Positions 11,510 through 26,377 of a stretch of DNA of 34,845 nucleotides are shown one piece after another. Within the stretch, counting starts at the first letter, position 1. Each line of letters begins with the position of its first letter. The position numbers were made by a program, and so were the translations under genes. The DNA is taken from the IMG/VR virus record IMGVR_UViG_3300037991_000852, positions 1-34,845 of that record. The stretch is one strand, 5' to 3'. This DNA is from a virus (taxonomy: Duplodnaviria > Caudoviricetes). The notes below the pieces were generated by a model. It did not search any database and was not told the origin of the DNA. It saw only the letters and a list, made by a program, of their open reading frames with translations.

Positions 11510-13042
11510 TTATCCTACTCGAAAAATTTTTGATTTGAGTGGTCTTTTGAAATTATACCCCATAAATGACGAATTTCCCGAAAAAGTTACGGCAGAACTT
11601 GCCATTGTCAACGCTAGAGCATCAGCTTTATCTGGTGACTTCAATCCACGTTTCTTCATTTGTTCTTTACTTTCTATTTTTATCTTACCTGATGAATTAT
11701 ATGAATAGCTAGGTGCAACCAATTCAGCTATCAATTCATCATCGCTTGGCAGTCGGCAATTACGTTGGGCCAACCACTCTTTAATTTGAAACCAAAGTTC
11801 GGCTCGCAAATTAATAAATTTCTTTTTGCTGGCAGGAGACTCTGACACATTCACCCCTCGGGCAGGTAGATTGAGTTCAGCTAGTCTATCGACCACCCCA
11901 GATCCTAAACCAATGGAGTCAACTAGGATTTCTTGCGGTGTCTCTAAGGCCGTACACTCTTCATACTCATTATGAATCGCTCCACATAATTGCATTAAAT
12001 CCATAGATTTAAAAGTTTTAATTTCAGTAACAGTATTACCTTGGCGTTTGCAGAGGGCAGTATTGTCACCACCGAACCTGGCTACGTCTAAACCCCAAAC
12101 GATTGGATCGGAAGCGGTAATGCTTACGTCTCGGTCAACGGCAGCTCTGGCTAGTTCGATTGGTATGACGGCATCATCATCGGCTCTTGGAAATTCACCG
12201 AGGACTTCAACACGAGCAACGGTTGAATCTTCTCCGTATTGTTCGAGCATACGATTGAATAGTTCGGTGTCAGTGTTTTCGACTGAACGGGAATCAATTT
12301 GTTCGGTGTGCCAGTATTTCTTGTTAGAGTGGAAGCTGTCGTAGAACGGACCAGTGTTTCTTCTGGGGTTGGAGAAAGCACACCAAAATCTGTTTTGGGT
12401 TGGTTCAGAGAAGAAACCTTCCGAGACTGAGTAGATGGGTGATGGAATACCACTGGCTTCGTCCATGATTAATAAGACACCGTAGTTGGAGTGGACACCA
12501 GCAAAAGCATCTGGGTTTTCTTCACTCCAGAGTTGGGCTTGAGCGTAGTAATAGCCTGTGTCGATTTGTAAGTCTCGTATGAGGGCTTCTTCATACCAGC
12601 CTGCAGGTTTGATGGTGGTGGCTGTCTTATTAAACCAGTGGGCGTTGATAGCGAGGGTGAGCCACTTACCGAGTTCCGCCCAGGTTCTTGAGCGAAGCTG
12701 TTGTTCGGTGTTGGCGGTAACAATGATAGTTGACCCCATGCGGGTAGAGAGCATCCAGAGTATAAGCCAAGCGACTAAGGCTGATTTACCTATACCCCGA
12801 CCTGATGCTACGGCCAGGCGGAACATCTCTGGGGTGACTTTGCCATGGTTGCGTTGTATGTGTGTGCCAATTTCTAATAAAATTTTTTCTTGCCATGCTC
12901 TTGGACCAGTGAAATCTTCGAGGGGGGTGTCTTTCTGACCCCAGGGGAAGATGAACTTAACGAAGTTTAGTGGACTGTCTTTGACAGCAGGCGACCAGAT
13001 GTCGGTCATTAATTCTTGTTCTTCTTTGGCTGAGTATTTCAT
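11510..13042 (-). CDS. terL: Terminase large subunit
   Basis: Walker A ASGRGIGKS, Walker B LLIMDEAS, FSNP coupling motif, nuclease GLDVARFGGD and SPDKADAL. Confidence 0.93.
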   Translation of the reverse strand: MKYSAKEEQELMTDIWSPAVKDSPLNFVKFIFPWGQKDTPLEDFTGPRAWQEKILLEIGTHIQRNHGKVTPEMFRLAVASGRGIGKSALVAWLILWMLSTRMGSTIIVTANTEQQLRSRTWAELGKWLTLAINAHWFNKTATTIKPAGWYEEALIRDLQIDTGYYYAQAQLWSEENPDAFAGVHSNYGVLLIMDEASGIPSPIYSVSEGFFSEPTQNRFWCAFSNPRRNTGPFYDSFHSNKKYWHTEQIDSRSVENTDTELFNRMLEQYGEDSTVARVEVLGEFPRADDDAVIPIELARAAVDRDVSITASDPIVWGLDVARFGGDNTALCKRQGNTVTEIKTFKSMDLMQLCGAIHNEYEECTALETPQEILVDSIGLGSGVVDRLAELNLPARGVNVSESPASKKKFINLRAELWFQIKEWLAQRNCRLPSDDELIAELVAPSYSYNSSGKIKIESKEQMKKRGLKSPDKADALALTMASSAVTFSGNSSFMGYNFKRPLKSKIFRVG

Positions 13043-13593
13043 ACTTCATTACCCCAGACATCCCAACCTTCTGTTTTGTGTCGAGCGAACAATTCAATTT
13101 TTGGTAAGTCTTTACACATTTGTTCTATTCTTTTTCTAACTTCCTCTGGTTTCTTGCTGTGTTTGGTTCTAATGTCTGCCACCAAACCCTTGATGTCGTT
13201 TCTTTCTTTTATATTTGCTAGTTTGCCTTTCATACCAATTAAACATATCTCTGTTGATTTCAAAAGGTAGGGAGAAAAGTTATAACAAGTAGAACCACTT
13301 TCATAATGTTTTACCCATGTGAAACCAATGGTCTTATAATTGAAACCCCAACTATCTATAACTTTCAAACCCTCTTTGAGATGGCTGTCTGTCACCCACA
13401 TAAACAGAATACAGTCATCGTTTGTTATGTCTTTTACTGGTAGAGAACATATTTCTGCTTCTGTCATGGTTGAATAATGTTTTTCAAGACTATGCGTAAA
13501 GCCCCTGTTCTCTTGATGTATTCTGCTGTTAAATTGCCAAGGTGGATCTGCATATATGATATTGTATTTTTTGTTTGGAAATGGAATGTCTAT
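13039..13593 (-). CDS. MT-A70-family adenine (N6) DNA methyltransferase; inferred ATA start
   Basis: The frame extends 42 codons upstream of the tracked ATG (13467) and contains KYNIIYADPPW; also LFMWVT, WGF.YKT..F.WVK, HSKKP, IELFAR, GWDVWGNE. Confidence 0.85.
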   Translation of the reverse strand: MDIPFPNKKYNIIYADPPWQFNSRIHQENRGFTHSLEKHYSTMTEAEICSLPVKDITNDDCILFMWVTDSHLKEGLKVIDSWGFNYKTIGFTWVKHYESGSTCYNFSPYLLKSTEICLIGMKGKLANIKERNDIKGLVADIRTKHSKKPEEVRKRIEQMCKDLPKIELFARHKTEGWDVWGNEV

Positions 13594-13606
13594 ATCTTTA
13601 TCCTCT

Positions 13607-13819
13607 CTATTCTTTGCTTTTGAAATATAAGCGAGTGTAATAACGTCTTATAATTGCAGCTAATGTTAGAACCATGAGTTGTATAACTGCGATCTTCAAT
13701 GGATCTGTTGTAAATGCCAAACAAGCAGCGAGTGTTGCCCAGGAGATTGGGAAGTTAAACGCTGCACCTAGTATTGTGTCAGTGATTGATTCTTCCATGG
13801 CTTTCCTATCTATTTTCAT
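13607..13819 (-). CDS. Small two-helix membrane protein (DUF7220-like)
   Basis: ESITDT..G, two hydrophobic stretches, IRRY..RLYF end. Confidence 0.6.
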   Translation of the reverse strand: MKIDRKAMEESITDTILGAAFNFPISWATLAACLAFTTDPLKIAVIQLMVLTLAAIIRRYYTRLYFKSKE

Positions 13820-13879
13820 AACTAAAAAAAAATTATCGCAACACTTACATATACGATACTACTGCCGATAAATTAAAGG

Positions 13880-13939
13880 GGGGGTGTTCGGTGATTTTCA
13901 ACGGGTAAAAATTGAAAAAGAGAGAGAATAAACACCCCC
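13880..13939. repeat. Nested inverted repeat downstream of terS
   Basis: GGGGGTGTT (13880-88)/AACACCCCC (13931-39) enclosing TTTTCAA (13895-901)/TTGAAAA (13912-18). Confidence 0.7.
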
Positions 13940-13946
13940 TGCCTAT

Positions 13947-14438
13947 TTATTTCTTGTCTTTATCCTCCTCTGGTTGAGAACCCATTCCTTGTTGAGACTT
14001 AGCCTTTCCTGCTTGTATCTCTTTTATATCAACGGTCTTAGCTTCTATTATATGTTCTTGGTCGTTGCCTAGTCGTTCTCTAGCGTTGTCGATTACGTTT
14101 TTTAGATCCACGTTGAACGTTGTTTCTACTTTGTCCGCCCAAGCTTTAGAGTCTCTATTTTTTAAATAGAATATTTGAGCAGTGACGTTGCCATCATTTG
14201 CGGATTGATATAAAGAGTTTGTGACTGTTGCCAATCCTCTTGCTTGTCCTCTTTTTAAAGCATCCTCAAATTCAGCAGAACGTTTCCTATTGCGGTCTAA
14301 TGTATCCCAAGAAACGCCCAAAGCACGAGCAATTTGAGTATTACCAAGACCTTGTGAAGCCAAACGCTCAACCTGTTCAATATCTATATTAATTAACTTT
14401 CTTCCAGGTTTTTTTCTCTTTTTCTCTACCATTTGCAT
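13947..14438 (-). CDS. terS: Terminase small subunit
   Basis: GR....D...VE.LA..G....QIA.ALGVS HTH followed by A..GNVTAQIFYLKNR....W.D; upstream of terL. Confidence 0.8.
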   Translation of the reverse strand: MQMVEKKRKKPGRKLINIDIEQVERLASQGLGNTQIARALGVSWDTLDRNRKRSAEFEDALKRGQARGLATVTNSLYQSANDGNVTAQIFYLKNRDSKAWADKVETTFNVDLKNVIDNARERLGNDQEHIIEAKTVDIKEIQAGKAKSQQGMGSQPEEDKDKK

Positions 14439-14534
14439 ATTTTTTTTAACTTTTTTTCATGCTTTTGATGCCTTTAATAATAACACTTTACAGAGATTTA
14501 ATAACTGTTTGATAAAAATATTTCTCCGCATTAC

Positions 14535-14564
14535 TTGTAATCTCTTTACGTTTACACCTATAAT
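14535..14564 (+). promoter_or_regulatory. Sigma70-like promoter for the plus-strand small-gene operon
   Basis: TTGTAA (14535-40), 18 bp spacer, TATAAT (14559-64); GGAGG and ATG at 14605 downstream. Confidence 0.55.
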
Positions 14565-14604
14565 TACTTCATACCGACAATTAAGTCGGAGGAGAAAAGA
14601 GAGA

Positions 14605-14949
14605 ATGAAAGATTATTTTAAATATGACGAGATCAAAAGTTATTTCGATAACTTTGTAGCTGAAAACTCAGAAGCATTAAATGATTCTGATTTCAGAGAT
14701 GAATTACACTATCATGCATTTAATAGTGACTATTATATTATTGGCACTTACCAGGCTAAACAATGGTTAGGTGATAAAGCCTTTGATGTAATTGGCATTG
14801 TTAAAGATTATGAAAAATTTAATTTTGGCGAAGTCACAACGGATTTATCTGATCCTGAAATGCTGGTAAATATGTATGCCTACATTGTAGGCGTAGATAT
14901 TGTTGCTGAATGGTTAGAAGCCAACCCATTAGAAGAGGTGGAAGCATGA
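14605..14949 (+). CDS. Acidic 114-aa protein, candidate Ocr-like DNA mimic
   Basis: Start moved to ATG 14605 (SD upstream); about 25 Asp/Glu versus 8 Lys/Arg; first gene after the promoter. Function is inference. Confidence 0.55.
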   Translation: MKDYFKYDEIKSYFDNFVAENSEALNDSDFRDELHYHAFNSDYYIIGTYQAKQWLGDKAFDVIGIVKDYEKFNFGEVTTDLSDPEMLVNMYAYIVGVDIVAEWLEANPLEEVEA

Positions 14950-15293
14950 GCCACCCAATAGATAATATTTACGATTACTTATTACAAAACTTTAGCGAAG
15001 CAGATATTAAAACTATCGCTGAATGTACAGGCGATTCTGTTGGAGTTAAGGGACTAGAAACATTTGAAGAAACATCAAAGGTTTACGACTTCTTAAAAGA
15101 AGATATTTGGTCTTTGATACAAGACGATATATTCGGAACAGATACAACACCGTTACAATATATCGCTGATCTAAATGGCGGAGATCTCGTAACTAATGAC
15201 CAAGAACTAAAAAACATATTGGTTTGGTATGCCTTAGAGATTTCAGCTTCTCTTTGGTTAGATATTGAAGAAATGGAAAAGGTGAAAGCATGA
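14946..15293 (+). CDS. Acidic 115-aa protein (DUF7222-like)
   Basis: Start at 14946 by ATGA overlap; about 24 Asp/Glu versus 7 Lys; YD...EDIW and KN.LVWYALE motifs. Confidence 0.55.
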   Translation: MSHPIDNIYDYLLQNFSEADIKTIAECTGDSVGVKGLETFEETSKVYDFLKEDIWSLIQDDIFGTDTTPLQYIADLNGGDLVTNDQELKNILVWYALEISASLWLDIEEMEKVKA

Positions 15294-15448
15294 AACACAT
15301 TAAAAACCATATAGACGTATTCATGCACAACCTATTCATTCGCAGAATGTCTAGGAAGTACGATAAACCATTTAACCAAATTAAATGGGTTGAGATGACC
15401 AAACGTGAGCAATCAGACTTTATGGACTTTGTGAGGGTGAAGAGATGA
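15290..15448 (+). CDS. 52-aa hypothetical protein
   Basis: MKHIKNHIDVFMHNLF...VRVKR; ATGA overlaps at both ends. Confidence 0.65.
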   Translation: MKHIKNHIDVFMHNLFIRRMSRKYDKPFNQIKWVEMTKREQSDFMDFVRVKR

Positions 15449-15834
15449 AAAGAAAATTTATTAAATCTAAGTCTAAAGATAAAACCATAGACAATATTAA
15501 GCTCTTAGCTTTGTCAGAAGATGTGTTGCAATACATACTAAGTAAAAAAAGATTGCAATTAACAAATGCTGAATTCTGCGAGTTCCTGAAAGCTTTCAAC
15601 CTAATGCTTGATACTGCTTTTTTCTTTTTACCTTATGGTGAAAGAAATAACATATTAGAAAAATTGCAGAACGGAGAAATTACACCCAGTCAAGCTGAAA
15701 AAAAGATATTTGTTAGCGAAGGCATACCTAAACCCTCCGACATGAAAAACCATGTCTATCGTGGTGGTAAGTATGAAAGAGGTTATGCTAACAAAGACAA
15801 AGTAGATTTAACCCCATACATTGATTATTTATAA
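15445..15834 (+). CDS. Hypothetical protein
   Basis: ORF track; SD and ATGA overlap. Confidence 0.6.
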   Translation: MKRKFIKSKSKDKTIDNIKLLALSEDVLQYILSKKRLQLTNAEFCEFLKAFNLMLDTAFFFLPYGERNNILEKLQNGEITPSQAEKKIFVSEGIPKPSDMKNHVYRGGKYERGYANKDKVDLTPYIDYL

Positions 15835-15845
15835 GGAGCGAAGAG

Positions 15846-16028
15846 ATGAGCCAACCAAAAAAGAAATACCGAGTTATAACTATGCAACCTGTTTATTATT
15901 ACCTGGATGTAATGGCTAAAGATAAAATTGAAGTCATGCAGAAAGCAGAAGCAACAGGCGGATCTAAATTCAAACTACTCTATAAAGGAGATTGGCAAAA
16001 CCATGAAGTAAAGGAGTTAAACGAATGA
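15846..16028 (+). CDS. Hypothetical protein
   Basis: AAGGAG SD; ATGA overlap downstream. Confidence 0.6.
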   Translation: MSQPKKKYRVITMQPVYYYLDVMAKDKIEVMQKAEATGGSKFKLLYKGDWQNHEVKELNE

Positions 16029-16240
16029 CTAGAGAATTTAAAGATTTTTATAAATGGTTTTCTGATAAATTTAACGAATTAAGTGGTTTAGATCATACAA
16101 GCAAAGAAGCAGAAAAAATAAAAATAGAAATGGGATATTCTGCTAATGCTGACTATTGGGATATAAACCATGATGTAGTAAAGATAAGAGACGTTGTTGA
16201 TTGGTATGAAGAATGGAAACAAAAGGAGGATAACCAATGA
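16025..16240 (+). CDS. Hypothetical protein
   Basis: AAGGAG SD; ATGA overlaps at both ends. Confidence 0.6.
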   Translation: MTREFKDFYKWFSDKFNELSGLDHTSKEAEKIKIEMGYSANADYWDINHDVVKIRDVVDWYEEWKQKEDNQ

Positions 16241-16388
16241 AACTTAGCCAAGAAAATTTAACTAAAGTATTCAATTATGTTTCTGAACAAATTGAAGATG
16301 ATAAAGGTAGAGGAGAGTTTGATAAAGATACTTTATTGCTCTCAGCAGTATCAAGAACTATTGAAATGATTGAGGATAACCAATGAAA
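16226..16388 (+). repeat. 17-bp exact direct repeat flanking one ORF
   Basis: GAGGATAACCAATGAAA at 16226-16242 and 16372-16388. Confidence 0.85.
16237..16386 (+). CDS. 49-aa hypothetical protein
   Basis: MKLSQENLTKVFNYVSEQIEDDKGRGEFDKDTLLLSAVSRTIEMIEDNQ; GGAGG SD; ATGA overlaps at both ends. Confidence 0.65.
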   Translation: MKLSQENLTKVFNYVSEQIEDDKGRGEFDKDTLLLSAVSRTIEMIEDNQ

Positions 16389-16712
16389 ACAACAATTAGA
16401 AAATATAAAGGATACATGATTGATGCTTGGTATAAGCAAGACACCGATAGAGTTGATTATTATAGAGCAAGGCCAATGCGACATAACGAAGCTCAAGAAA
16501 TAAGAAAAGAAATAATAGATAAACCTTGGCATGGTCCAGATTGTAGGTGTGCAGAATGCACTTATACAGAAGATGAACTTAAACACAATGAAGAGGTAAA
16601 TGAAAGGGCAAAACTTATTATAAATGAAATTAAGTTAGCAACTTTTCAAAGACCTACTCTGAAAGAGTGCAAACAAGAAATTGATAAAAGAGAAAATAAT
16701 GAAAAAAATTAA
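16383..16712 (+). CDS. Hypothetical protein with HxxxCxCxxC cluster
   Basis: ORF track; HGPDCRCAEC may bind metal. Confidence 0.6.
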   Translation: MKTTIRKYKGYMIDAWYKQDTDRVDYYRARPMRHNEAQEIRKEIIDKPWHGPDCRCAECTYTEDELKHNEEVNERAKLIINEIKLATFQRPTLKECKQEIDKRENNEKN

Positions 16713-16797
16713 ATACGATTTAGAAAAAATACTTATATGGTTTGGCTTAACTGTTTGCCTAATGTTCTTTTGGTGTTGGATCTTAGGACTGACTTAA
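16699..16797 (+). CDS. 32-aa single-TM peptide
   Basis: MKKIKYDLEKILIWFGLTVCLMFFWCWILGLT; its stop shares TTAA with the convergent gene. Confidence 0.5.
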   Translation: MKKIKYDLEKILIWFGLTVCLMFFWCWILGLT

Positions 16798-17294
16798 CCC
16801 CTTCCGATCTCTTGGGCTTCCTTCCTTGCTCGCTCTCCCAAATATAGAGCTTGGTTGGTTGCCCTCTCCCTGCCCTCCTTGCTGACCTCATAGGCCAAAC
16901 CAACAAACAGAAAATGTCTCTTCCCACCCCTCTCCAGACTTTCGTAAATCTTATCTTCCTCGCCCTCACCGTCACGAACCAATAAAATAATACCCTTCTC
17001 CATCAACCCTCTAATAGCTCGACTGACTGCCGACCTATGCAGTCCAGTCATTAAACCATAATAAACTACTGCATCATGACTGCTCCAGGTATCTAATCTA
17101 AACCTCTCGAGCATAGCCCAAAAAACAATTTTCTCCGTAGGTGTTAAGTCCTGCCTTGCTATCACCTTCCTACCTTGCTTCCATAATACCTTACGGTATC
17201 GCTTAACGTTCAAACTGCTTTGTAATTCCCGACTGATTCCGCCTTCCTGCCTTCCTGCCTGAAGTCCGAATTTAATCCACCACTTTCTCTTCAT
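16794..17294 (-). CDS. Winged-helix DNA-binding protein
   Basis: LTPTEKIV.WAM.....TGLHRSAVSRAIRGLMEKGII HTH pattern, as in replication-initiator or regulator N-domains. Confidence 0.6.
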   Translation of the reverse strand: MKRKWWIKFGLQAGRQEGGISRELQSSLNVKRYRKVLWKQGRKVIARQDLTPTEKIVFWAMLERFRLDTWSSHDAVVYYGLMTGLHRSAVSRAIRGLMEKGIILLVRDGEGEEDKIYESLERGGKRHFLFVGLAYEVSKEGRERATNQALYLGERARKEAQEIGRG

Positions 17295-17315
17295 ACTCTC
17301 TACCTAAAAAATAAT

Positions 17316-17403
17316 AAATGAGCCTCAAGCTCATTTTTATTATATGGATATTATAACTGGATATATGTCGCTATTTGTATCTCCTCGAAACAATAAGCGA
17401 CAT
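17316..17403. promoter_or_regulatory. AT-rich intergenic segment with two inverted repeats
   Basis: AAATGAGC-N5-GCTCATTT (17316-36); ATGTCGCT-N23-AGCGACAT (17365-403); TGGATAT twice between them. Confidence 0.5.
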
Positions 17404-17427
17404 GTTTTTACCAATATTGGCATAATA

Positions 17428-17787
17428 TTACCCTCGTTTATCAATATTTATTAATAGTTTTTTTAACTTTGGCATGAAATTATTATGAATATTATAAACT
17501 CGTAAGCGTTTGTCGGTGTTGTGATTTGTCTTATGGTAAACCTTAATTGCTACCCCATCATTGAGTAATAATTGTATCGTGGATCTTGAACCAAACTTAT
17601 GATTGGTGAGCCGACATATTTCTTCGTAATAGACGGGTTTATTAATAAATTGTTGTTTGGCTATGGTATTGGTAACAACAAAAGATAAAGGATCAGCAAA
17701 ATAAAATCTAAACATCTTATCTAATATTGCTTCTTTGTAATCTTTATCCCAATTACCTAATATTCTGAGATAGTCGCTAGTCTCCAT
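17428..17787 (-). CDS. Hypothetical protein, probable winged-helix fold
   Basis: GSRSTIQ.LLN.G and DKR.R.Y wing-like motif; GGGGG SD. Confidence 0.5.
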   Translation of the reverse strand: METSDYLRILGNWDKDYKEAILDKMFRFYFADPLSFVVTNTIAKQQFINKPVYYEEICRLTNHKFGSRSTIQLLLNDGVAIKVYHKTNHNTDKRLRVYNIHNNFMPKLKKLLINIDKRG

Positions 17788-17841
17788 CTTATCCCCCCTG
17801 TTTGTTACAATATTACATATTAGTAATATCGGAGTAATAAC

Positions 17842-17973
17842 CTATTTATTTTTAGTGGGTTTATTTTTTTTCCAATGCTTTTTGTGCGGAGATTTAAATA
17901 TTGAATCCCAGCGATTTTTAAACTCTTCGTCTGAGATTTGTCTTGGTCTTTGATCTGATCCTTTACCTGCCAT
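17842..17973 (-). CDS. 43-aa basic peptide
   Basis: MAGKGSDQRPRQISDEEFKNRWDSIFKSPHKKHWKKNKPTKNK; GKGS..RP...F...WD.IF pattern. Confidence 0.65.
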   Translation of the reverse strand: MAGKGSDQRPRQISDEEFKNRWDSIFKSPHKKHWKKNKPTKNK

Positions 17974-17997
17974 AATTGTAATTAGACTAATTCTAAA

Positions 17998-18147
17998 TTA
18001 ACCTTGCCCTCGATATTTCTTCCAACTTCTTTTCATGTTCTTATTCATGGTTGAATGTCCAACATTATTTCTACCCAGAGAAGTTTTTTTACCTCTTCCT
18101 GGTGTCGCTGATCTATAAGTATTAACTGTTTTAGCTTTTCTTACCAT
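17998..18147 (-). CDS. 49-aa basic peptide ending KKYRGQG
   Basis: MVRKAKTVNTYRSATPGRGKKTSLGRNNVGHSTMNKNMKRSWKKYRGQG. Confidence 0.65.
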   Translation of the reverse strand: MVRKAKTVNTYRSATPGRGKKTSLGRNNVGHSTMNKNMKRSWKKYRGQG

Positions 18148-19558
18148 TTATGTATTTTAGAATATGTTTAATAACTTCGACAGTCCAACCATTACCTAAC
18201 ATTTTATATCTCTGTGTATTAGACACATGATTAGTATAATTATCTGGCACTGTCTGTAACCTTTCGCACTCTAAAGGTGTTAGCTTTCGCCAGGTTAAAT
18301 CTTCTTGCTGAACACCTGTTGCTGAAAACTTACCACCCTTACTCGTATCGTTTTCAAAGTTAGCTCTTGATGATTTGTAATAGTTTGCTTTGATTGGGTG
18401 TGACTTTTCAATACTTATTTCGTGGTCTTTATTAAGGCTAGGAGTGACCGTTCCAACTTTACCGTCTTTTCTAGGCTTTAATTCCTTTGCTCTATAAGGG
18501 GTGTGATCTTTTCCTGTTTTTTGCCTTACCATTCTACGCATTTTCTTAGCTTCGTCTGTTCTAACTTCTCTATAAGATTGAACTACCACCTTTGGCTCTC
18601 TGTTACCACCACCCATAGTATTTAATGTCGGAGACTTACCCTCTGGGCTATAAACTCTTTTTAAAATATCGTGACCATTTATGTCGGCAGCAACACCAAC
18701 TTGTTTTGGCTTATTAGGAACTAAAGTTGTTCCATTATTGCCAATACCTTTATATGTTGATGCTAAAAGCGGAACTGCCTTTTCATCTAAATTTCTTTTG
18801 TTTCTTTCAATCTTTTTTTGAGTAGTTGTTTGTGCCACACCAACTTGTTTGGGTTTGCCATCATAATCACAAGCTAAGTAATCGCCTTGTCTACCATTCT
18901 TGACATATTCCATAGCTGACAAATTACTGGCTTTTTCTTTTGTGTAATCAATTAAACACTTTCTGCCTTTTTGTCTTTTAGCAAACTTATCAGACATCTT
19001 GGTAAAATTTTCTGGCTCTGTCTCTAATATATCTCTCAAAACAATACCCCTATCTTCTGGTTGCTGTATGTTAGGTATATTAGTCCAATAATACCTTTGT
19101 CTTGATTGAGCGCTCAGAAGAGAACTGTTTATAAGAAGGGGTTCTATGCCAAAAGCTATTTCTGGGTAACACTTAGATACTTCTTGCGAAATAATATCTA
19201 AAAACTCTTTCTTCATTCTCACATTTTCTAATAAAAAATATTTTGGCTTAATTGCTTTGAGCAAACGAATAAATTCAAAAAACAATGCCGATCTAGGATC
19301 ATCAAAAGCCAACTGCTTACCTGCAAAAGAAAATCCCTGACAAGGACTACCACCCATGATTAAATCAACATCTGCAAAATCTTTAGGATCTAACTTGGTA
19401 ACATCACCCACTTGTATAGTGTTAGGATAATTAGCTTGTGTTACCTGGATAGCATACTTATCTATCTCACTAGCATAATATTTTTCGACAGGTATGCCGA
19501 GCTGATCTAAAGCTATCTGACCGCAGCTCATACCATCAAACAAACTTAAAACTTTGAT
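18131..19558 (-). CDS. C5-cytosine DNA methyltransferase with expanded variable region; inferred ATC start
   Basis: Motifs (I)KVLSLFDG, EID, GDV, GGSPCQGFS, ENV, QSRQRYYW, RKLTPLECERLQ, YKMLGNGW. Confidence 0.9.
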   Translation of the reverse strand: MKVLSLFDGMSCGQIALDQLGIPVEKYYASEIDKYAIQVTQANYPNTIQVGDVTKLDPKDFADVDLIMGGSPCQGFSFAGKQLAFDDPRSALFFEFIRLLKAIKPKYFLLENVRMKKEFLDIISQEVSKCYPEIAFGIEPLLINSSLLSAQSRQRYYWTNIPNIQQPEDRGIVLRDILETEPENFTKMSDKFAKRQKGRKCLIDYTKEKASNLSAMEYVKNGRQGDYLACDYDGKPKQVGVAQTTTQKKIERNKRNLDEKAVPLLASTYKGIGNNGTTLVPNKPKQVGVAADINGHDILKRVYSPEGKSPTLNTMGGGNREPKVVVQSYREVRTDEAKKMRRMVRQKTGKDHTPYRAKELKPRKDGKVGTVTPSLNKDHEISIEKSHPIKANYYKSSRANFENDTSKGGKFSATGVQQEDLTWRKLTPLECERLQTVPDNYTNHVSNTQRYKMLGNGWTVEVIKHILKYINGKKS

Positions 19559-21400
19559 TTACCAATCCTCTCTTATTTTATTAGCTTCAATAGGCTCAAG
19601 GATAACATCTTTTCTAAATAATGTTTTAGGCGTGAAGTCTGCTTTACCATTAGACTTAACCATAGCAAATTGAGCTACTCTATTTATATCTGGCTCAACA
19701 TCATTTTCTAAACATATCTCTTCAGCTAAATCTTCTTTGACATGAGTTAAAACTGCCGCCCACCTTGCCGAGTCAACGATTGCCGAAGCCCCTCTAATAC
19801 TTGCTCTAAAACCAAAAGCATCACTAGCACTAAACGCTGACTTACTCATATGGTGGGAAGTAATCACCGCACTATTTGTTTTCTTGGCCAAACCAGCAAC
19901 ATAAGTTCCCCAGAGTTGACCGACTTCATTTGAAGAAGATACAGATGCAGAGCAGAAACTACTCAAGGGATCGATGATAAGGAGACTTAGAGAATGAAAA
20001 GACATCAACTCCTCTTGCAGTGACCACCCTGCATCTGTAATTCTTAAACCTTGATTATCTTCCGCAATAATATTAATCGGAGAAGCATCAGGAACGCAGT
20101 AGACAAAAACATTATTCGGATAACCAAATCTTTTTTCATTTGGATCTAGTGAATGTAGCCTATGATGTATTTCGTCTTGTGAATCTTCACCTGTTAAAAA
20201 AACTACATCACCACCTGACATAATTGGTTGATTGAGCCACCGACCTTGACCACTTGCTACCTTCAAAGCCAAGTCTAACAGCAATCCAGATTTGCCAATC
20301 CCACCCAAACCAGCAAAAACTCCTGCAACTTCTTTTGGGATCAAATCATTGACTACATATTCACGTTCTAAGGGCTTTCCCTGTAAGTCACGAATACTAA
20401 ACCCTCGGATTTGGAATCCCGTTTGATACAGCTCATTTCTGACTCTCTCAGCTCCAAACTCCAAAAATAAGTCATTATAATCGCCTTTTACAGAGGGTAT
20501 TCGTGTAATACAGTTAAATATTGCAGACTGAACCTCTTTTGCTCGGTCTTGGCCAACACCTGAATCATCATTATCAAGTGCCAAAATAAATTGACCATTA
20601 TAAATCTTCCTAAATCTAGTTAAGGCTTCTAAACAAAAATTTGCTGAGAACACAACCAAGACTGGAATGTTGCAACTTTCATAAACACTACAAGCAGTTG
20701 CATAACCTTCGACTACTGCAATTTTTTCTACCTGGCTAATTGAAGCTAGGTCTGTGCCAATTAAAAAGAAACTACCTTTAGTTTCTCCTGCACTCGCAAA
20801 TCTTTTCTGACCATCAGACATTATGTATTGCACAGAGCGTAAATCTAATTCTTTTGTTTCAGGGTGTAGCCGATACATTGGTATTAATAAATTACCATTG
20901 GCTTCTTTAATGCCATAAGATCCTATTTGTTTTGCTTTCAAATATGGGTGTGCTGTTACTTGGTCTGCCTTACTAAATTTATCTTTAACGTATTCAGCAG
21001 TTTCTTCTTGCTTCCTTGCTTTATCTTCGGCAGCTTTTGCCTTAACTTCTTCTAGTTTTGCATATAGTTGTTTTTGTTCTTGTTTAGATAGACTTGCCGT
21101 TGAGCCTGTAAAGAATTTCTTTTCTTCACCTGTTCGCCAATTACCATAGACACAACAAGCATAGTCTGGATTGATTTGATGATAGATATACCATCCGCTA
21201 GTCTCGCCTGACTTATCAGGTCTTTGGCCACCAATAGCATTAACACCCACTCTTTGTAGTGAACCTTCTTTTAAAAAATCAACACGTAAACCAAAGTCAC
21301 GCATTGCATTAAGAAGATCATCAACAGTATTGCTATCTTGAGCAAATTTAATTGAGTTGTCTAATTTTATGCCGCCATCAAAGTATTGGTCTAATTTCAT
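19559..21400 (-). CDS. Primase-helicase (TOPRIM plus AAA_25/RepA-like helicase)
   Basis: HPYL..K, VVEGYATA, ALDND, GDYND TOPRIM motifs; Walker A AGLGGIGKS, TGED, LLIIDP, HH..K, RGASA. Confidence 0.88.
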   Translation of the reverse strand: MKLDQYFDGGIKLDNSIKFAQDSNTVDDLLNAMRDFGLRVDFLKEGSLQRVGVNAIGGQRPDKSGETSGWYIYHQINPDYACCVYGNWRTGEEKKFFTGSTASLSKQEQKQLYAKLEEVKAKAAEDKARKQEETAEYVKDKFSKADQVTAHPYLKAKQIGSYGIKEANGNLLIPMYRLHPETKELDLRSVQYIMSDGQKRFASAGETKGSFFLIGTDLASISQVEKIAVVEGYATACSVYESCNIPVLVVFSANFCLEALTRFRKIYNGQFILALDNDDSGVGQDRAKEVQSAIFNCITRIPSVKGDYNDLFLEFGAERVRNELYQTGFQIRGFSIRDLQGKPLEREYVVNDLIPKEVAGVFAGLGGIGKSGLLLDLALKVASGQGRWLNQPIMSGGDVVFLTGEDSQDEIHHRLHSLDPNEKRFGYPNNVFVYCVPDASPINIIAEDNQGLRITDAGWSLQEELMSFHSLSLLIIDPLSSFCSASVSSSNEVGQLWGTYVAGLAKKTNSAVITSHHMSKSAFSASDAFGFRASIRGASAIVDSARWAAVLTHVKEDLAEEICLENDVEPDINRVAQFAMVKSNGKADFTPKTLFRKDVILEPIEANKIREDW

Positions 21401-21752
21401 TCTCTTTAGGTTTTAATTCTCCTGTCTCCGCCACATAATTTTGGTGGTTAAGAAAATGTCTGACCGCATCTTTTACAAATGCTAACTTACTCTCTCTTGA
21501 CCACTGATTCATTTGTCCTGTTTTCTCTTTCTTTATTATTTCGTAAAAAGTATCTTTCAAATTTGTTAGAGCGTATTCCACACCAGCATCAGAAACTCTT
21601 GCGATATTTCTCACAAGCTCACCTTTATTAATTTCTTTTTGATGTTCCATTGAACACGCTCCATATACAAATCGCCCTTCGCCTTTTATTACGAGGAATG
21701 GCAATGCTGGGCGACCACATTGACACAAGCTGGGGTAGTTATCTTCTACCAC
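21378..21752 (-). CDS. Hypothetical protein with Cys/His cluster
   Basis: PSLCQCGRP...GACSMEH; overlaps both neighbours. Confidence 0.55.
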   Translation of the reverse strand: MVEDNYPSLCQCGRPALPFLVIKGEGRFVYGACSMEHQKEINKGELVRNIARVSDAGVEYALTNLKDTFYEIIKKEKTGQMNQWSRESKLAFVKDAVRHFLNHQNYVAETGELKPKENEIRPIL

Positions 21753-22207
21753 GCAGCATTATCACCTTCAGTTTCAGTTTTAGTTTCTGCAACTTTAGGT
21801 GTATCTTTTCCAACACCAGGAAGAATTGCTGCTTCCCAATTAGATCCATAATTGTCATCTATTTCTAAATAACCATTATCGTTTCTTTTGAGATCACAGC
21901 TTACAGTTCTACCTGCAAGGAGGTCTGTATCGGAAAAGTTATCAATACCTGCTGCTTTCGCTAACAGATACAAACTCTTTTCAGCAACTTGTTTTGCTTT
22001 CTCGCTACCTTCCACCGTGAACAATGCTCCAACTGTTATGTTGGTATCTTCCACTTTAAAATGTAACTTCAGACCAGAACCACCATTTTGGTATGGCTTA
22101 TGTTCTGTGTGGCTATAAACTAAATTATATCTTCCCTCTTCAAGTTGAGGTCTGTCGTCAGTAGGTTCTTTAATCCCACCCTCGAAATGTTTTGACAAAT
22201 CTGCCAT
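21746..22207 (-). CDS. Probable single-stranded DNA-binding protein (DUF669-like)
   Basis: L.EG.Y, L.L.F.V, acidic tail ending in W; downstream of Sak4-like ATPase. Confidence 0.65.
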   Translation of the reverse strand: MADLSKHFEGGIKEPTDDRPQLEEGRYNLVYSHTEHKPYQNGGSGLKLHFKVEDTNITVGALFTVEGSEKAKQVAEKSLYLLAKAAGIDNFSDTDLLAGRTVSCDLKRNDNGYLEIDDNYGSNWEAAILPGVGKDTPKVAETKTETEGDNAAW

Positions 22208-22225
22208 TTGCTTTTCTCCTATTTA

Positions 22226-22429
22226 TTAACCAGTGTAGGAGCGAGGATCATTGATGTATTCGATAGTGTTATCTAATCCCTCAATAGTCTCCTCAATGCT
22301 CTCAGTTACACCGACTGGATAAATCGTATCTAATTCGTAAGTTGCTCTTGGATCGTCTAAAACTTTTTGCAAAGTTCTTCGCACTCTCATAAGAGTCTTA
22401 GGAATGTCGATTGGTTTCGGTTTACCCAT
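22226..22429 (-). CDS. Hypothetical protein
   Basis: ORF track; co-oriented in operon. Confidence 0.55.
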   Translation of the reverse strand: MGKPKPIDIPKTLMRVRRTLQKVLDDPRATYELDTIYPVGVTESIEETIEGLDNTIEYINDPRSYTG

Positions 22430-22487
22430 TATTTATCTAACAATATTTAACCATTAAGAATCCAATGAATTTTCATACGAAAAAACA

Positions 22488-23228
22488 TCAGTTGTTTTTA
22501 ATGGCTTTTTTAATAGCATCCCATTTGAGCGGTAACTCAGCAGGTAAGCTATATCTATTCTTCGCTAAGAACGCAGGACGTTCTTCAACGTGCAGAACTC
22601 GCTGTCCAGTAGAAACAGCGCGAGTCCTTTCGCCACCTCTGCTTTTTTCCACAACTGTTCCAGTTTTGAAATCAGCAAAGCCAACGATGTCTGAGACTTC
22701 TAAATATAAAAAACCATGCTTGGCATTTAATTTAATCTCATATCTATCGTAAGCTTCTGAGGTAGGATCTTCAAAACGCTTGATTACTGAATGAGCTAAC
22801 ATACAGATAATCATGCCTTTTTGTTCTCGTAATTGATTTAGTAAGTCAATTATTTCCCTAGTGTATTTCAGGCTTAAACTGAAACCTTTACCATAACCAG
22901 GTTCATTGATGTCTTTGAAACCTTCAACCTTACAAGTCTTATCAAAAATAATTGGTTCTAAATGATCCAATGAATCAATAACCAAAGTTTTATATTTATG
23001 ATCTTCTGCAAGTAATGATTTTAGTATTTCAATTATGTCATCATAATTTTTTAATAAATCAGTATGTGCTACATCAATCACACCTAGACCATCTTCGGTC
23101 ATAAGAAATATTGGTTCAGGAAACTCTGAAGCGATAGTTGTTTTACCAACTCCAGGTTTGCCATGAATTAATATTCTTGGTGGTTTTAAAGTAGCTTTAG
23201 TTTTTATATCAGCTAATGAAAAAGCCAT
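22488..23228 (-). CDS. Sak4-like / AAA_24 ATPase (ssDNA annealing)
   Basis: IHGKPGVGKTT, TEDG, TLVIDSLD.LE, GYGKG, AH, AKNR. Confidence 0.85.
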   Translation of the reverse strand: MAFSLADIKTKATLKPPRILIHGKPGVGKTTIASEFPEPIFLMTEDGLGVIDVAHTDLLKNYDDIIEILKSLLAEDHKYKTLVIDSLDHLEPIIFDKTCKVEGFKDINEPGYGKGFSLSLKYTREIIDLLNQLREQKGMIICMLAHSVIKRFEDPTSEAYDRYEIKLNAKHGFLYLEVSDIVGFADFKTGTVVEKSRGGERTRAVSTGQRVLHVEERPAFLAKNRYSLPAELPLKWDAIKKAIKNN

Positions 23229-23509
23229 TACTTAGACTCCTTTCCTATTATGCCAGTAGCAGTTTTATCTTCCTCAACTTCTTTTACTTCAGGAAGCATT
23301 GGTTTTAGTTTTTCAACTAACAAGGCTTCATTCTTTAGTAATGAATTGAAGTGAGCTACTTTCTTAGCTGCTTCTTGTGCTTCAGCCATAAGGCTTTGCT
23401 TTTCTTGCAATACTCCTACCAAGTCTTGCACGACAGGTCGGCTTTCGTGTGTAAGGTCATGTTCAAATATGTCACGACCATCCATCGTAATTATCGGGTT
23501 GGTTTCCAT
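23228..23509 (-). CDS. Hypothetical coiled-coil protein
   Basis: GGAGG SD; TAATG coupling downstream. Confidence 0.55.
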   Translation of the reverse strand: METNPIITMDGRDIFEHDLTHESRPVVQDLVGVLQEKQSLMAEAQEAAKKVAHFNSLLKNEALLVEKLKPMLPEVKEVEEDKTATGIIGKESK

Positions 23510-24228
23510 AAAATCTTTCCTCCATTTTCTGTAAAATCATTATAAGACTTACAATAAGTCTTACCCTTGCAGAGCAAACACTGTTGCCCTACTACTTCTT
23601 TCGGATTTTTTTCCAGAGCTGCATCAACACAGTCTTTCAAATATCCTAAACCCCAATCTACAAGTTCATGCAGATCAAGAGTTGTTTCTTTAGCTTTACC
23701 GTTTTGAAAAATAACATTTTCATATTGGTAATCTCCACCCCACCTTGCTACCGCCCCTAGGGTGTATATCTTTAGCTGTCCGTTATCTATGACCTCTACT
23801 GGCCACTTACCTGACTTCAAATCAATCAGGCTTATCTTGTCTTTACCAATGAGAATAATATCTGCTGTACCAAATAAATGATCGTTAACTTCATGCACAT
23901 AAAGTTTTTCTTCAATCAACATTTCAGCTTCCATCTCCTCTTGCTTTTTGAAAACATAGTTTGAATAGGCTAGTGCTTTCTTTACTAACTTTTCATCTAT
24001 TGTTACTTCTATGTCTCCATCCTTATATTTCTGTCCAACAAAGTGTTCTGTTGGATCTAAGTCTATCAACTCTTGTTTCAAAACTTTCTCAGCCATCCAG
24101 TGACAAGCACTACCACTTACGGTCGCCTCGCTGGCAACATACGGAGCTTTACTACTCAGTGTTGCACTAGCTGGACACTTGCTCCAGAGCTTATCAAACC
24201 CTGAAGGCGACACTATTGAGTGCGAGAT
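23491..24228 (-). CDS. DUF2800 / Cas4-like PD-(D/E)XK exonuclease; inferred ATC start
   Basis: (I)SHSIVSPS..W..CP, G...H..AE, FGTAD, IDLKSGK, NGQL.IY.LG, C..C.....C. Confidence 0.8.
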   Translation of the reverse strand: MSHSIVSPSGFDKLWSKCPASATLSSKAPYVASEATVSGSACHWMAEKVLKQELIDLDPTEHFVGQKYKDGDIEVTIDEKLVKKALAYSNYVFKKQEEMEAEMLIEEKLYVHEVNDHLFGTADIILIGKDKISLIDLKSGKWPVEVIDNGQLKIYTLGAVARWGGDYQYENVIFQNGKAKETTLDLHELVDWGLGYLKDCVDAALEKNPKEVVGQQCLLCKGKTYCKSYNDFTENGGKILWKPTR

Positions 24229-24230
24229 AA

Positions 24231-24425
24231 CTACTCCTTATTAATAGGTTGCTGTATTTGTTCGCTCTCGTAAGCTGTCACATCATCAAAATCGTACAGC
24301 ACTTTGCCACCGATTTTGTAATATGGGATTCCAATACCTCTTGAACGCCAGTTCTCTAATGTACGCTCACTTCGCTTCCAACGCTCTGCTAGTTGTCCTT
24401 GATCTATGAAATTTCGGTCTTTCAT
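24231..24425 (-). CDS. Excisionase/AlpA-like HTH protein
   Basis: LAERW..SERTLENWRS.G.G.PY.KIGGKVLY...DV..YE. Confidence 0.8.
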   Translation of the reverse strand: MKDRNFIDQGQLAERWKRSERTLENWRSRGIGIPYYKIGGKVLYDFDDVTAYESEQIQQPINKE

Positions 24426-24551: not shown

Positions 24552-25007
24552 ATGAGTATTGATAAAGTTACACCAGAAGAGTGGAACAAAGCTAACAGAG
24601 AGCTTGCAACAGAGCGACAGGTTGGTGGCAGTCACTACAAAGGTAGAGCTCAACCAATAGAATATATTATCAAGAACAACATTAGTTGGTGTCTTGGGAA
24701 CAGTATTAAATACATTACCAGGTCTGGTAAAAAGGGTAAAAGAAAAGATCATATTAAAGACCTGCAAAAAGCCATACATTATATAGAGCTAGAATTGCAG
24801 CATACTTATAATGTAGATCCAAACGGCAAACCCTTAACAAGCAAAAATATTGATTGTGAAAAAATAGATTGGGAAATCTTTTTAGATAAGCAATATCTTT
24901 TCTACTACCAGCAAAATGTAGGTGAGATAATTTTAGATTACGATGAATGGCTAAAAGAAAATGAAGCCGATTTAAAAGAGAGGTATAAAGATGAAGGGAT
25001 TGTTTAG
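24552..25007 (+). CDS. DUF3310-domain protein with C-terminal extension
   Basis: QVGGSHY...QPIEYI......CLGN.IKYI.R.GKK......DL.KA.HY. Confidence 0.8.
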   Translation: MSIDKVTPEEWNKANRELATERQVGGSHYKGRAQPIEYIIKNNISWCLGNSIKYITRSGKKGKRKDHIKDLQKAIHYIELELQHTYNVDPNGKPLTSKNIDCEKIDWEIFLDKQYLFYYQQNVGEIILDYDEWLKENEADLKERYKDEGIV

Positions 25008-26332: not shown

Positions 26333-26377
26333 TGGTGAGCCCTGCAGGATTCGAACCTGCGACCCATTCCTTAAAAG
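26333..26377 (-). other. 3' half of tRNA-Lys(UUU), the attP core; not a full tRNA gene
   Basis: Minus strand CTTTTAA-GGAAT-GGGTC-GCAGG-TTCGAAT-CCTGC-AGGGCTC-A-CCA; no 5' anticodon stem, D-arm or 5' acceptor strand upstream. Confidence 0.9.

Follow-up and report, generated by a model that had tools for sequence, protein, structure and literature searches.

Why would a phage open genes for DNA-acting enzymes with isoleucine (Ile) codons, and does the choice lie with the enzymes or with the places where they are encoded? The question is raised by virus record IMGVR_UViG_3300037991_000852, a complete record of 34,845 base pairs (bp; hereafter the window, meaning this whole stretch of DNA) that has a G+C content of 36.6% and is contained in marine metagenome runs. 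ATG or GTG opens 46 of its 49 tabulated genes. The other three, all on the minus strand, encode an MT-A70 adenine methyltransferase, a C5 cytosine methyltransferase and a DUF2800 nuclease-like protein, and their starts read ATA or ATC. An earlier, sequence-only reading of this DNA had placed these starts at 13593, 19558 and 24228, each with an intact frame, a nearby upstream stop and normal Shine-Dalgarno (SD) spacing, and had found ordinary starts in the other genes it checked; all of these coordinates, and the ordinary remainder, proved right. We find that both methylase genes sit in optional slots where the initiation region (AGAGAGG, 7-8 nucleotides (nt), then ATA, ATT, ATC or TTG) stays and unrelated methylases change. 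Judged from sequence, all three genes are probably translated from their weak ATA or ATC codons, which would hold the enzymes at a constitutively low level.

In all three genes the Ile codon aligns with the first methionine (Met1) of the family, SD spacing is 5-8 nt, and the frame matches its family profile from the first profile positions. Upstream of the Ile codon, the first in-frame stop stands 19 codons away in MT-A70, 1 in C5 and 4 in DUF2800. The MT-A70 gene (13039..13593) starts at ATA (13593-13591) and has an open frame of 184 codons. Its 184-amino-acid (aa) product covers positions 1-172 of the 172 in PF05063 (1.6e-32), matches phrog_359 and PDB entries including 7f4r, and keeps the DPPW motif intact. 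The C5 gene (18131..19558) starts at ATC (19558-19556) and has an open frame of 475 codons; the 475-aa product matches PF00145 (4.7e-55), aligns to M.HhaI from residue 2 and carries motif I at the N-terminus, PCQ, ENV and the C-terminal GN motif. The DUF2800 gene (23491..24228) starts at ATC (24228-24226) and has an open frame of 245 codons. Residue 3 of the 245-aa product falls on position 1 of the PF10926 profile (9.9e-38, above the cut-off), and further matches to PDDEXK_1 and to the phrog_69 exonucleases make it a predicted nuclease of the PD-(D/E)XK-like type. It also has an N-terminal cysteine and a C-terminal C-x2-C-x5-C pattern, an arrangement that may resemble the iron-sulfur staple known from nucleases of the Cas4/AddB type. 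The middle of the C5 gene (18200-19100, the target-recognition region) varies in length among homologues, which suggests specificity swapping.

Each Ile codon follows an SD site. The MT-A70 initiation region (13591..13608, minus strand) consists of AGAGAGGAT, 6 nt and ATA; the C5 region (19556..19573, minus) has AGAGAGGAT within the last primase codons, then TAA and the in-frame ATC; and the DUF2800 region (24226..24240, minus) has TAAGGAG, 5 nt and an ATC that lies 2 nt past the stop of the upstream gene. The window holds exactly two copies of AGAGAGGAT, each 6 nt 5' of an Ile codon, where a third-order Markov model expects 0.2. The identical context of the two methyltransferase genes, singled out in the earlier reading, is thus present with both copies and the same spacing, but it is less special than was thought, as two ATG genes (22207 and 24552) likewise have a common 9-mer at the same offset. 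In the terL slots of relatives, AGAGAGG-N7/8-ATA or ATT is kept across cargos while spacers vary. AGAGAGGA can base-pair with the CCUCCUUUC tail that PMC5303271 gives for Caulobacter. Because of this pairing, because only AGAGAGG is kept, and because ATG genes share a 9-mer too, AGAGAGGAT reads as an extended SD site and not as a unique operator. The terL slot of one relative (L086) and the primase slot of the window have 13 bases in common, so a common origin of the two initiation regions is possible. With an alphaproteobacterial-type tail, which may not be the host's own, SD energies of the three genes were -10.1, -10.4 and -7.7 against a median of -5.9 kcal/mol (p=0.04), ranking 6, 9 and 18 of 49. 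The available text of PMC10783764 holds nothing on the host tail, and local mRNA folding at the Ile starts did not differ from that at other genes (p=0.27).

The MT-A70 gene is the cargo of a slot bordered downstream by the large terminase gene terL (11510..13042, minus; identified by tblastn matches to annotated terminase large subunits), whose ATG its stop overlaps. The upstream gene (13607..13819, minus) encodes 70 aa with a weak DUF7220 match below the curated cut-off, and its TAG overlaps the SD. Where the slot is empty, the DUF7220-like gene overlaps the terL ATG directly. Otherwise the slot in relatives contains one of five divergent MT-A70 alleles, a Dam-like methylase or an N6/N4 methylase, with AGAGAGG (once GAGGG) and ATA or ATT ahead. 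Nine junction types were found after the DUF7220-like gene, four empty and five filled (three MT-A70 with ATA, two Dam-like with ATT), and all filled types have AGAGAGG. The GAGGG case, in L225, is an N6/N4 methylase (phrog_67) with ATA in the same pre-terL position. None of the Dam-like (phrog_111, ATT), N6/N4 (phrog_67, ATA) and phrog_757 (ATC) cargos has a canonical codon in its first 40 codons.

A coding-anchored scan, in which the start codon was not forced, found ATA in 18/18 contigs. Sixteen of these have the gene directly before terL with AGAGAGG 7-8 nt upstream, varied upstream genes and no ATG nearby; the other two, which represent one tandem methylase array, have an ATG four codons upstream. 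An SD-anchored scan, which forces ATA, gave 37 matches, of which 16 are true slot genes and 21 unrelated genes that were removed from the counts. The ATA alleles form five groups with mutual identity of 35-57%, and a phylogenetic tree scatters them over different branches between relatives that start with ATG, some of which are their sisters with strong support in several cases. Of eight rows labelled Ile in this tree, five were counted; L023, L036 and one L407 copy were excluded as Ile rows (mislabelled or unverified). In L407 (1393-3986), and also in L413, three different MT-A70 genes and an N6/N4 methylase gene are joined by stop-start overlaps. The third MT-A70 of the L407 array has the N-terminus of the window's family, with an ATG four codons ahead of the ATA.

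The C5 gene occupies a second slot, after the primase-helicase gene (19559..21400, minus; Toprim and AAA_25 by Pfam). Its cassette is flanked by a 6-bp direct repeat, TGGTAA, with the left copy at 19559..19564 and the right copy at 18141..18146 (both minus), the latter overlapping the ATG of a 49-aa open reading frame (ORF; 18147-17998, minus). In empty-slot relatives this ORF follows the primase gene directly, and the primase has a different tail, whose ATG opens a small ORF. Among 13 junction types, five are empty and eight filled. All eight filled types carry AGAGAGG inside the primase tail, followed by ATC (6) or TTG (2) and never by ATG, and their cargos are C5 with ATC (4), a phrog_757 methylase with ATC (2) and an N6/N4 methylase with TTG (2). 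From these two sets of junctions the weak start is seen to belong to the slot and not to the enzyme. In a more distant lineage (L119, L132, L136, L137, L244, L266, L269 and L275), the TTG at which the post-primase C5 gene starts overlaps the primase stop. A phrog_757-like gene of L007 starts at GTG; both are weak canonical starts in the same slot. Between C5 and 17787 the minus strand carries two small basic ORFs opened by ATG and shorter than the usual cut-off, namely the 49-aa ORF and one of about 43 aa (from 17973).

Homologues were tabulated for the codon at Met1 and for selection. The Ile codon recurs, most clearly in DUF2800, where ATC is present in 21/22 contigs of 94.7-100% identity and TTG takes its place in a 76% relative; the distant rows have canonical starts in 12/12. 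For DUF2800, comparison with the window's copy gives dN/dS ratios (non-synonymous to synonymous substitution) of 0-0.10 at dS values reaching 0.54. For MT-A70, ATA without a canonical codon nearby was found at 6/80 homologous loci, and the window allele differs from that of L411 by 14-17 synonymous and 0 non-synonymous changes. Four ATC alleles of C5 give dN/dS of 0.02-0.15 over codons 2-115. Relaxed selection was not seen, with dN/dS mostly 0-0.15, and by these measures the three Ile-start genes are under purifying selection and are working genes.

The concentration of weak starts on DNA-modifying enzymes, another claim of the sequence-only reading, was borne out across lineages. In an all-frame start survey from which antisense shadow ORFs had been filtered out, covering 649 lineages dereplicated at 90%, a start without a canonical codon was found in 12/169 modification or DUF2800 lineages and in 7/480 others, and GTG/TTG was also enriched in the former (28:128 vs 33:427); both p-values (Fisher p=6e-4 and p=3e-4) are optimistic, for the reasons given below. 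In six of the seven other lineages a canonical codon lies 4-11 codons further downstream, and the seventh appears to be spurious. A fourth case, which was not a seed of the survey, is a gene resembling phosphoadenosine phosphosulfate (PAPS) reductase (phrog_424) with AAGGAG and ATA (L249:2823-3668, and L051). In L249 an N6/N4 methylase gene follows it. Within the window, all three Ile starts fall among nine DNA-acting genes of the 49 (p=0.005; the grouping into nine is our own).

A near-cognate start behind a strong SD is a known device. Initiation factor 3 (IF3) accepts AUG, GUG and UUG and discriminates against other codons, and near-cognate codons reached 1-2% of AUG in an Escherichia coli survey cited in PMC5499595; behind extended SDs in Staphylococcus aureus they gave about 10%, and up to 30%, of AUG (bioRxiv 10.1101/2025.06.19.660503). 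The closest parallels are S. aureus ccpN (AUA) and cvfC1 (AUU), which share a conserved near-cognate start and a strong extended SD (bioRxiv 10.1101/2025.06.19.660503 = PMC13009471). They differ in being single chromosomal genes with Ribo-Ret proof, whereas the phage genes are known from sequence and cargos change behind one initiation region. In E. coli, infC and pcnB (AUU; PMC5499595) likewise start at an Ile codon discriminated against by IF3, but infC forms a feedback loop on its own product, and no IF3 domain was found in the window. As in pcnB, ccpN and cvfC1, the phage genes have Ile at Met1, a strong SD (AGAGAGG or AAGGAG) at 5-8 nt, and conservation under purifying selection. Short stop-to-start distances favour re-initiation, the range from -8 to +10 being predictive (PMC10666635); C5 (0 nt) and DUF2800 (2 nt) lie inside it, and MT-A70 lies outside, at 13 nt in the variable zone, behind an upstream gene that differs among relatives. 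By hidden Markov model matches and intact motifs, the enzymes appear to be members of the orphan phage methyltransferases (PF05063, PF00145, phrog_111, phrog_67, phrog_757) and DUF2800/phrog_69 exonucleases, most of whose homologues start at ATG, GTG or TTG. Orphan phage DNA methyltransferases have an anti-restriction role. Searches confined to the open literature turned up no paper on Ile starts as a fixed feature of methylase slots in phages, which is weak evidence of absence.

These observations suggest how the slots may work. Cargo would be swapped through recombination at or just after the start codon, and the incoming enzyme would therefore lose its own ATG. The strong SD would make the weak codon usable, re-initiation past the upstream stop probably adds coupling, and by analogy with the E. 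coli and S. aureus data the output might be about 1-30% of that of an AUG start. For a temperate phage, the likely advantage is to methylate its own DNA against host restriction and to run recombination at a dose too low for excess methylation or cutting of either its own or the host's DNA. IF3 would then be the host's standing filter against such codons and not a switch under phage control. Low dosage appears to be the best inference among the interpretations first offered for these starts. The accompanying idea that the enzymes are intrinsically toxic is doubtful, because MT-A70 alleles about 90% identical start at ATG or GTG elsewhere and because the window's integrase and PD-(D/E)XK_5 endonuclease use ATG.

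Several points weigh against fixed low output. The MT-A70 alleles with canonical starts (ATG or GTG) in other phages are 87-92% identical to that of the window, homologues of these families overall are mostly canonical in the same way, and L012 and L038, of a more distant terL lineage, have an ATG-started MT-A70 in the same position; the ATG starts of the window's own integrase and endonuclease belong here too. The class-bias p-values are optimistic because the lineages are not independent, going back to about four origins (terL slot, primase slot, DUF2800 and PAPS-like), and because genes of the window itself were used to retrieve the loci; 6e-4 and 3e-4 therefore overstate the effect. The SD advantage is borderline, at p=0.04 with the alphaproteobacterial-type tail, and loses significance when an E. 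coli-type tail is assumed (p=0.08). The ATC of DUF2800 is present in 15/15 unique alleles, which is weak evidence alone as 8/12 internal Ile columns are equally invariant. Non-AUG genes such as infC can, moreover, be highly expressed (PMC5499595).

Tolerated drift accounts for part of this pattern, and we consider it possible, though unlikely. ATG would have been lost once per slot in genes of low need, a strong SD would have compensated, and the start would have been inherited passively, with low output tolerated and not selected. The few independent origins fit such a history, as do the near-identical enzymes that start at ATG elsewhere and the first codons common to MT-A70 alleles, which offer a crossover site for recombination. 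Non-AUG starts generally tend toward stronger SDs, an association that is not significant in alphaproteobacteria, and AUG loss is under purifying selection in prokaryotes, which speaks against drift (PMC5622118). So does the absence of ATG from all 13 filled slot types of the close clade, even though donors with ATG are plentiful. The presence of ATA, ATT, ATC and TTG alike in the slots counts against drift as well, and no such start was found in structural, lysis or replication-core families.

Constitutive low dosage must also be set against regulation. We doubt, but put forward, a broader proposal in which fixed weak-start platforms with swapped DNA-modifying enzymes make the anti-restriction and recombination kit respond to IF3 and guanosine tetraphosphate (ppGpp), so that the amount of methylation would vary with the nutrient supply of the host, an oligotrophic marine alphaproteobacterium. 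Quite improbable, too, is a regulated layer in which the Ile starts render the methylases and the nuclease jointly sensitive to host IF3, ppGpp and nutrient state, so that modification and recombination track host physiology or the lysis-lysogeny state. All three genes act on DNA, ppGpp and nutrient limitation preferentially inhibit non-AUG mRNAs in vitro (PMC5499595), and the output of the ccpN AUA rose from about 10% to 30% with the medium; the cvfC1 AUU showed no medium effect (bioRxiv 10.1101/2025.06.19.660503). A scan of the window found no IF3_N domain, no tRNA and no Rfam family above the cut-off, although small unannotated ORFs could hide a factor. The initiation region gives further points against regulation: the plus strand has no copy of AGAGAGGAT, which leaves no second site with perfect antisense, only AGAGAGG is kept, and spacers vary as they do for SDs. 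TTG, which IF3 accepts, is present in the same primase slot in 2/8 types. The shared control layer tied to IF3 that the sequence-only reading had proposed is not supported by these results.

Other routes to the proteins are very improbable and were rejected. They comprise a start at a codon-6 TTG or GTG, readthrough of the primase stop, and a +1 frameshift from a TTG in the primase tail. C5 and DUF2800 do have just five residues upstream of a canonical codon: TTG at codon 6 of C5 (19543), immediately before FDGMSCG, and GTG at codon 6 of DUF2800 (24213). The claim that each conserved motif lies upstream of any ATG, GTG or TTG accordingly holds for MT-A70, whose first ATG is codon 43, beyond the DPPW motif, and fails for the other two. 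The ATC of C5 is in the same frame directly after TAA, and a 9-codon ORF that begins with the TTG at 19565 is offset from that frame by one base. The codon-6 fallbacks, however, lack an SD (-2.9 and +0.8 kcal/mol) and are missing in intact alleles, L101 having CTG in place of the fallback (first canonical codon 10) and L092 GTT (first canonical codon at about 45); for these reasons the Ile codons remain the best candidate starts in C5 and DUF2800. A codon-6 start would cost DUF2800 a conserved His and C5 the residues aligned with the first strand of M.HhaI, which is structural. The MT-A70, Dam-like and phrog_757 cargos have no fallback at all, codons 2-8 of L101 differ from those of the window by synonymous changes when read as methylase, and the codon after TAA is always start-like and aligned with the family Met.

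Contigs from runs X12 (records 9, 13 and 16), X14 (17 and 24) and X15 (28) span the Ile codons with no base differing; these are contigs, not raw reads. A sequencing error or silenced genes, a reading with nothing in its favour beyond the absence of ATG, is scarcely credible and already largely refuted: contigs assembled from other runs have the identical bases, as do 21 related contigs, and frames and motifs are intact with dN/dS far below 1.

Gene callers do cut such genes short, as had been predicted: protein records hold a 142-aa MT-A70 stub on 68 contigs and a 240-aa DUF2800 on 50, and one database has a 234-aa form begun at a remote ATG. Full-length translations beginning with Ile were not in the collection by exact look-up, which would also miss a Met-initial version. 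With stubs stored in this way, MT-A70 without its catalytic DPPW, methylase surveys would under-count such genes or call them broken. The slots amount to a natural experiment, in that several unrelated methylases enter one site and adopt a common weak start. This pattern suggests dose-tuning of DNA modification by phages. They also offer constructs with which to ask whether near-cognate phage starts are merely low or also regulated.

The host is likely a low-G+C marine alphaproteobacterium, a lead and not proof, because of tRNA-Lys(UUU) matches, their G+C content, and their neighbour genes and labels. An attP-like 45-bp 3' part of tRNA-Lys(UUU) (26333..26377, minus) adjoins the integrase gene and lies before it, giving a lead to both host and integration site. 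It has exact matches in 88 metagenome stretches, with a full tRNA-Lys in 45/60 of those scanned. Eight such loci that were examined have a G+C content of 25-29% and the neighbours ssb-gyrA-(coaD)-recG; of nine neighbour proteins that were looked up, one carries the label 'Pelagibacteraceae bacterium', and a member of another cluster is labelled 'Alphaproteobacteria bacterium'. In a small sample of tRNA-matching contigs, ssb, gyrA, coaD and recG all have an in-frame ATG, GTG or TTG, which gives no support to host-wide tolerance of Ile starts. No close cultured relative was found, the best DUF2800 matches being about 30% and the best terminase matches below 50% identical, and scans of genome contigs with the primase and integrase as probes found no relative. 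RNA sequencing runs cover only small shares of the window, and scans for promoters and terminators gave no more than chance would.

The remaining modules of the window comprise SU10-type portal, capsid and adaptor genes, an integrase, and a run of DUF2800, AAA_24, single-stranded DNA-binding protein (SSB)-like and primase/helicase genes. An excisionase-like HTH_17 gene (24231..24425, minus) lies upstream of DUF2800. On the opposite strand, a block at 14500-16712 (plus) contains small genes that vary among relatives, four of which were scanned and gave no Pfam match, and a small gene at 24552-25007 (plus) matches DUF3310.

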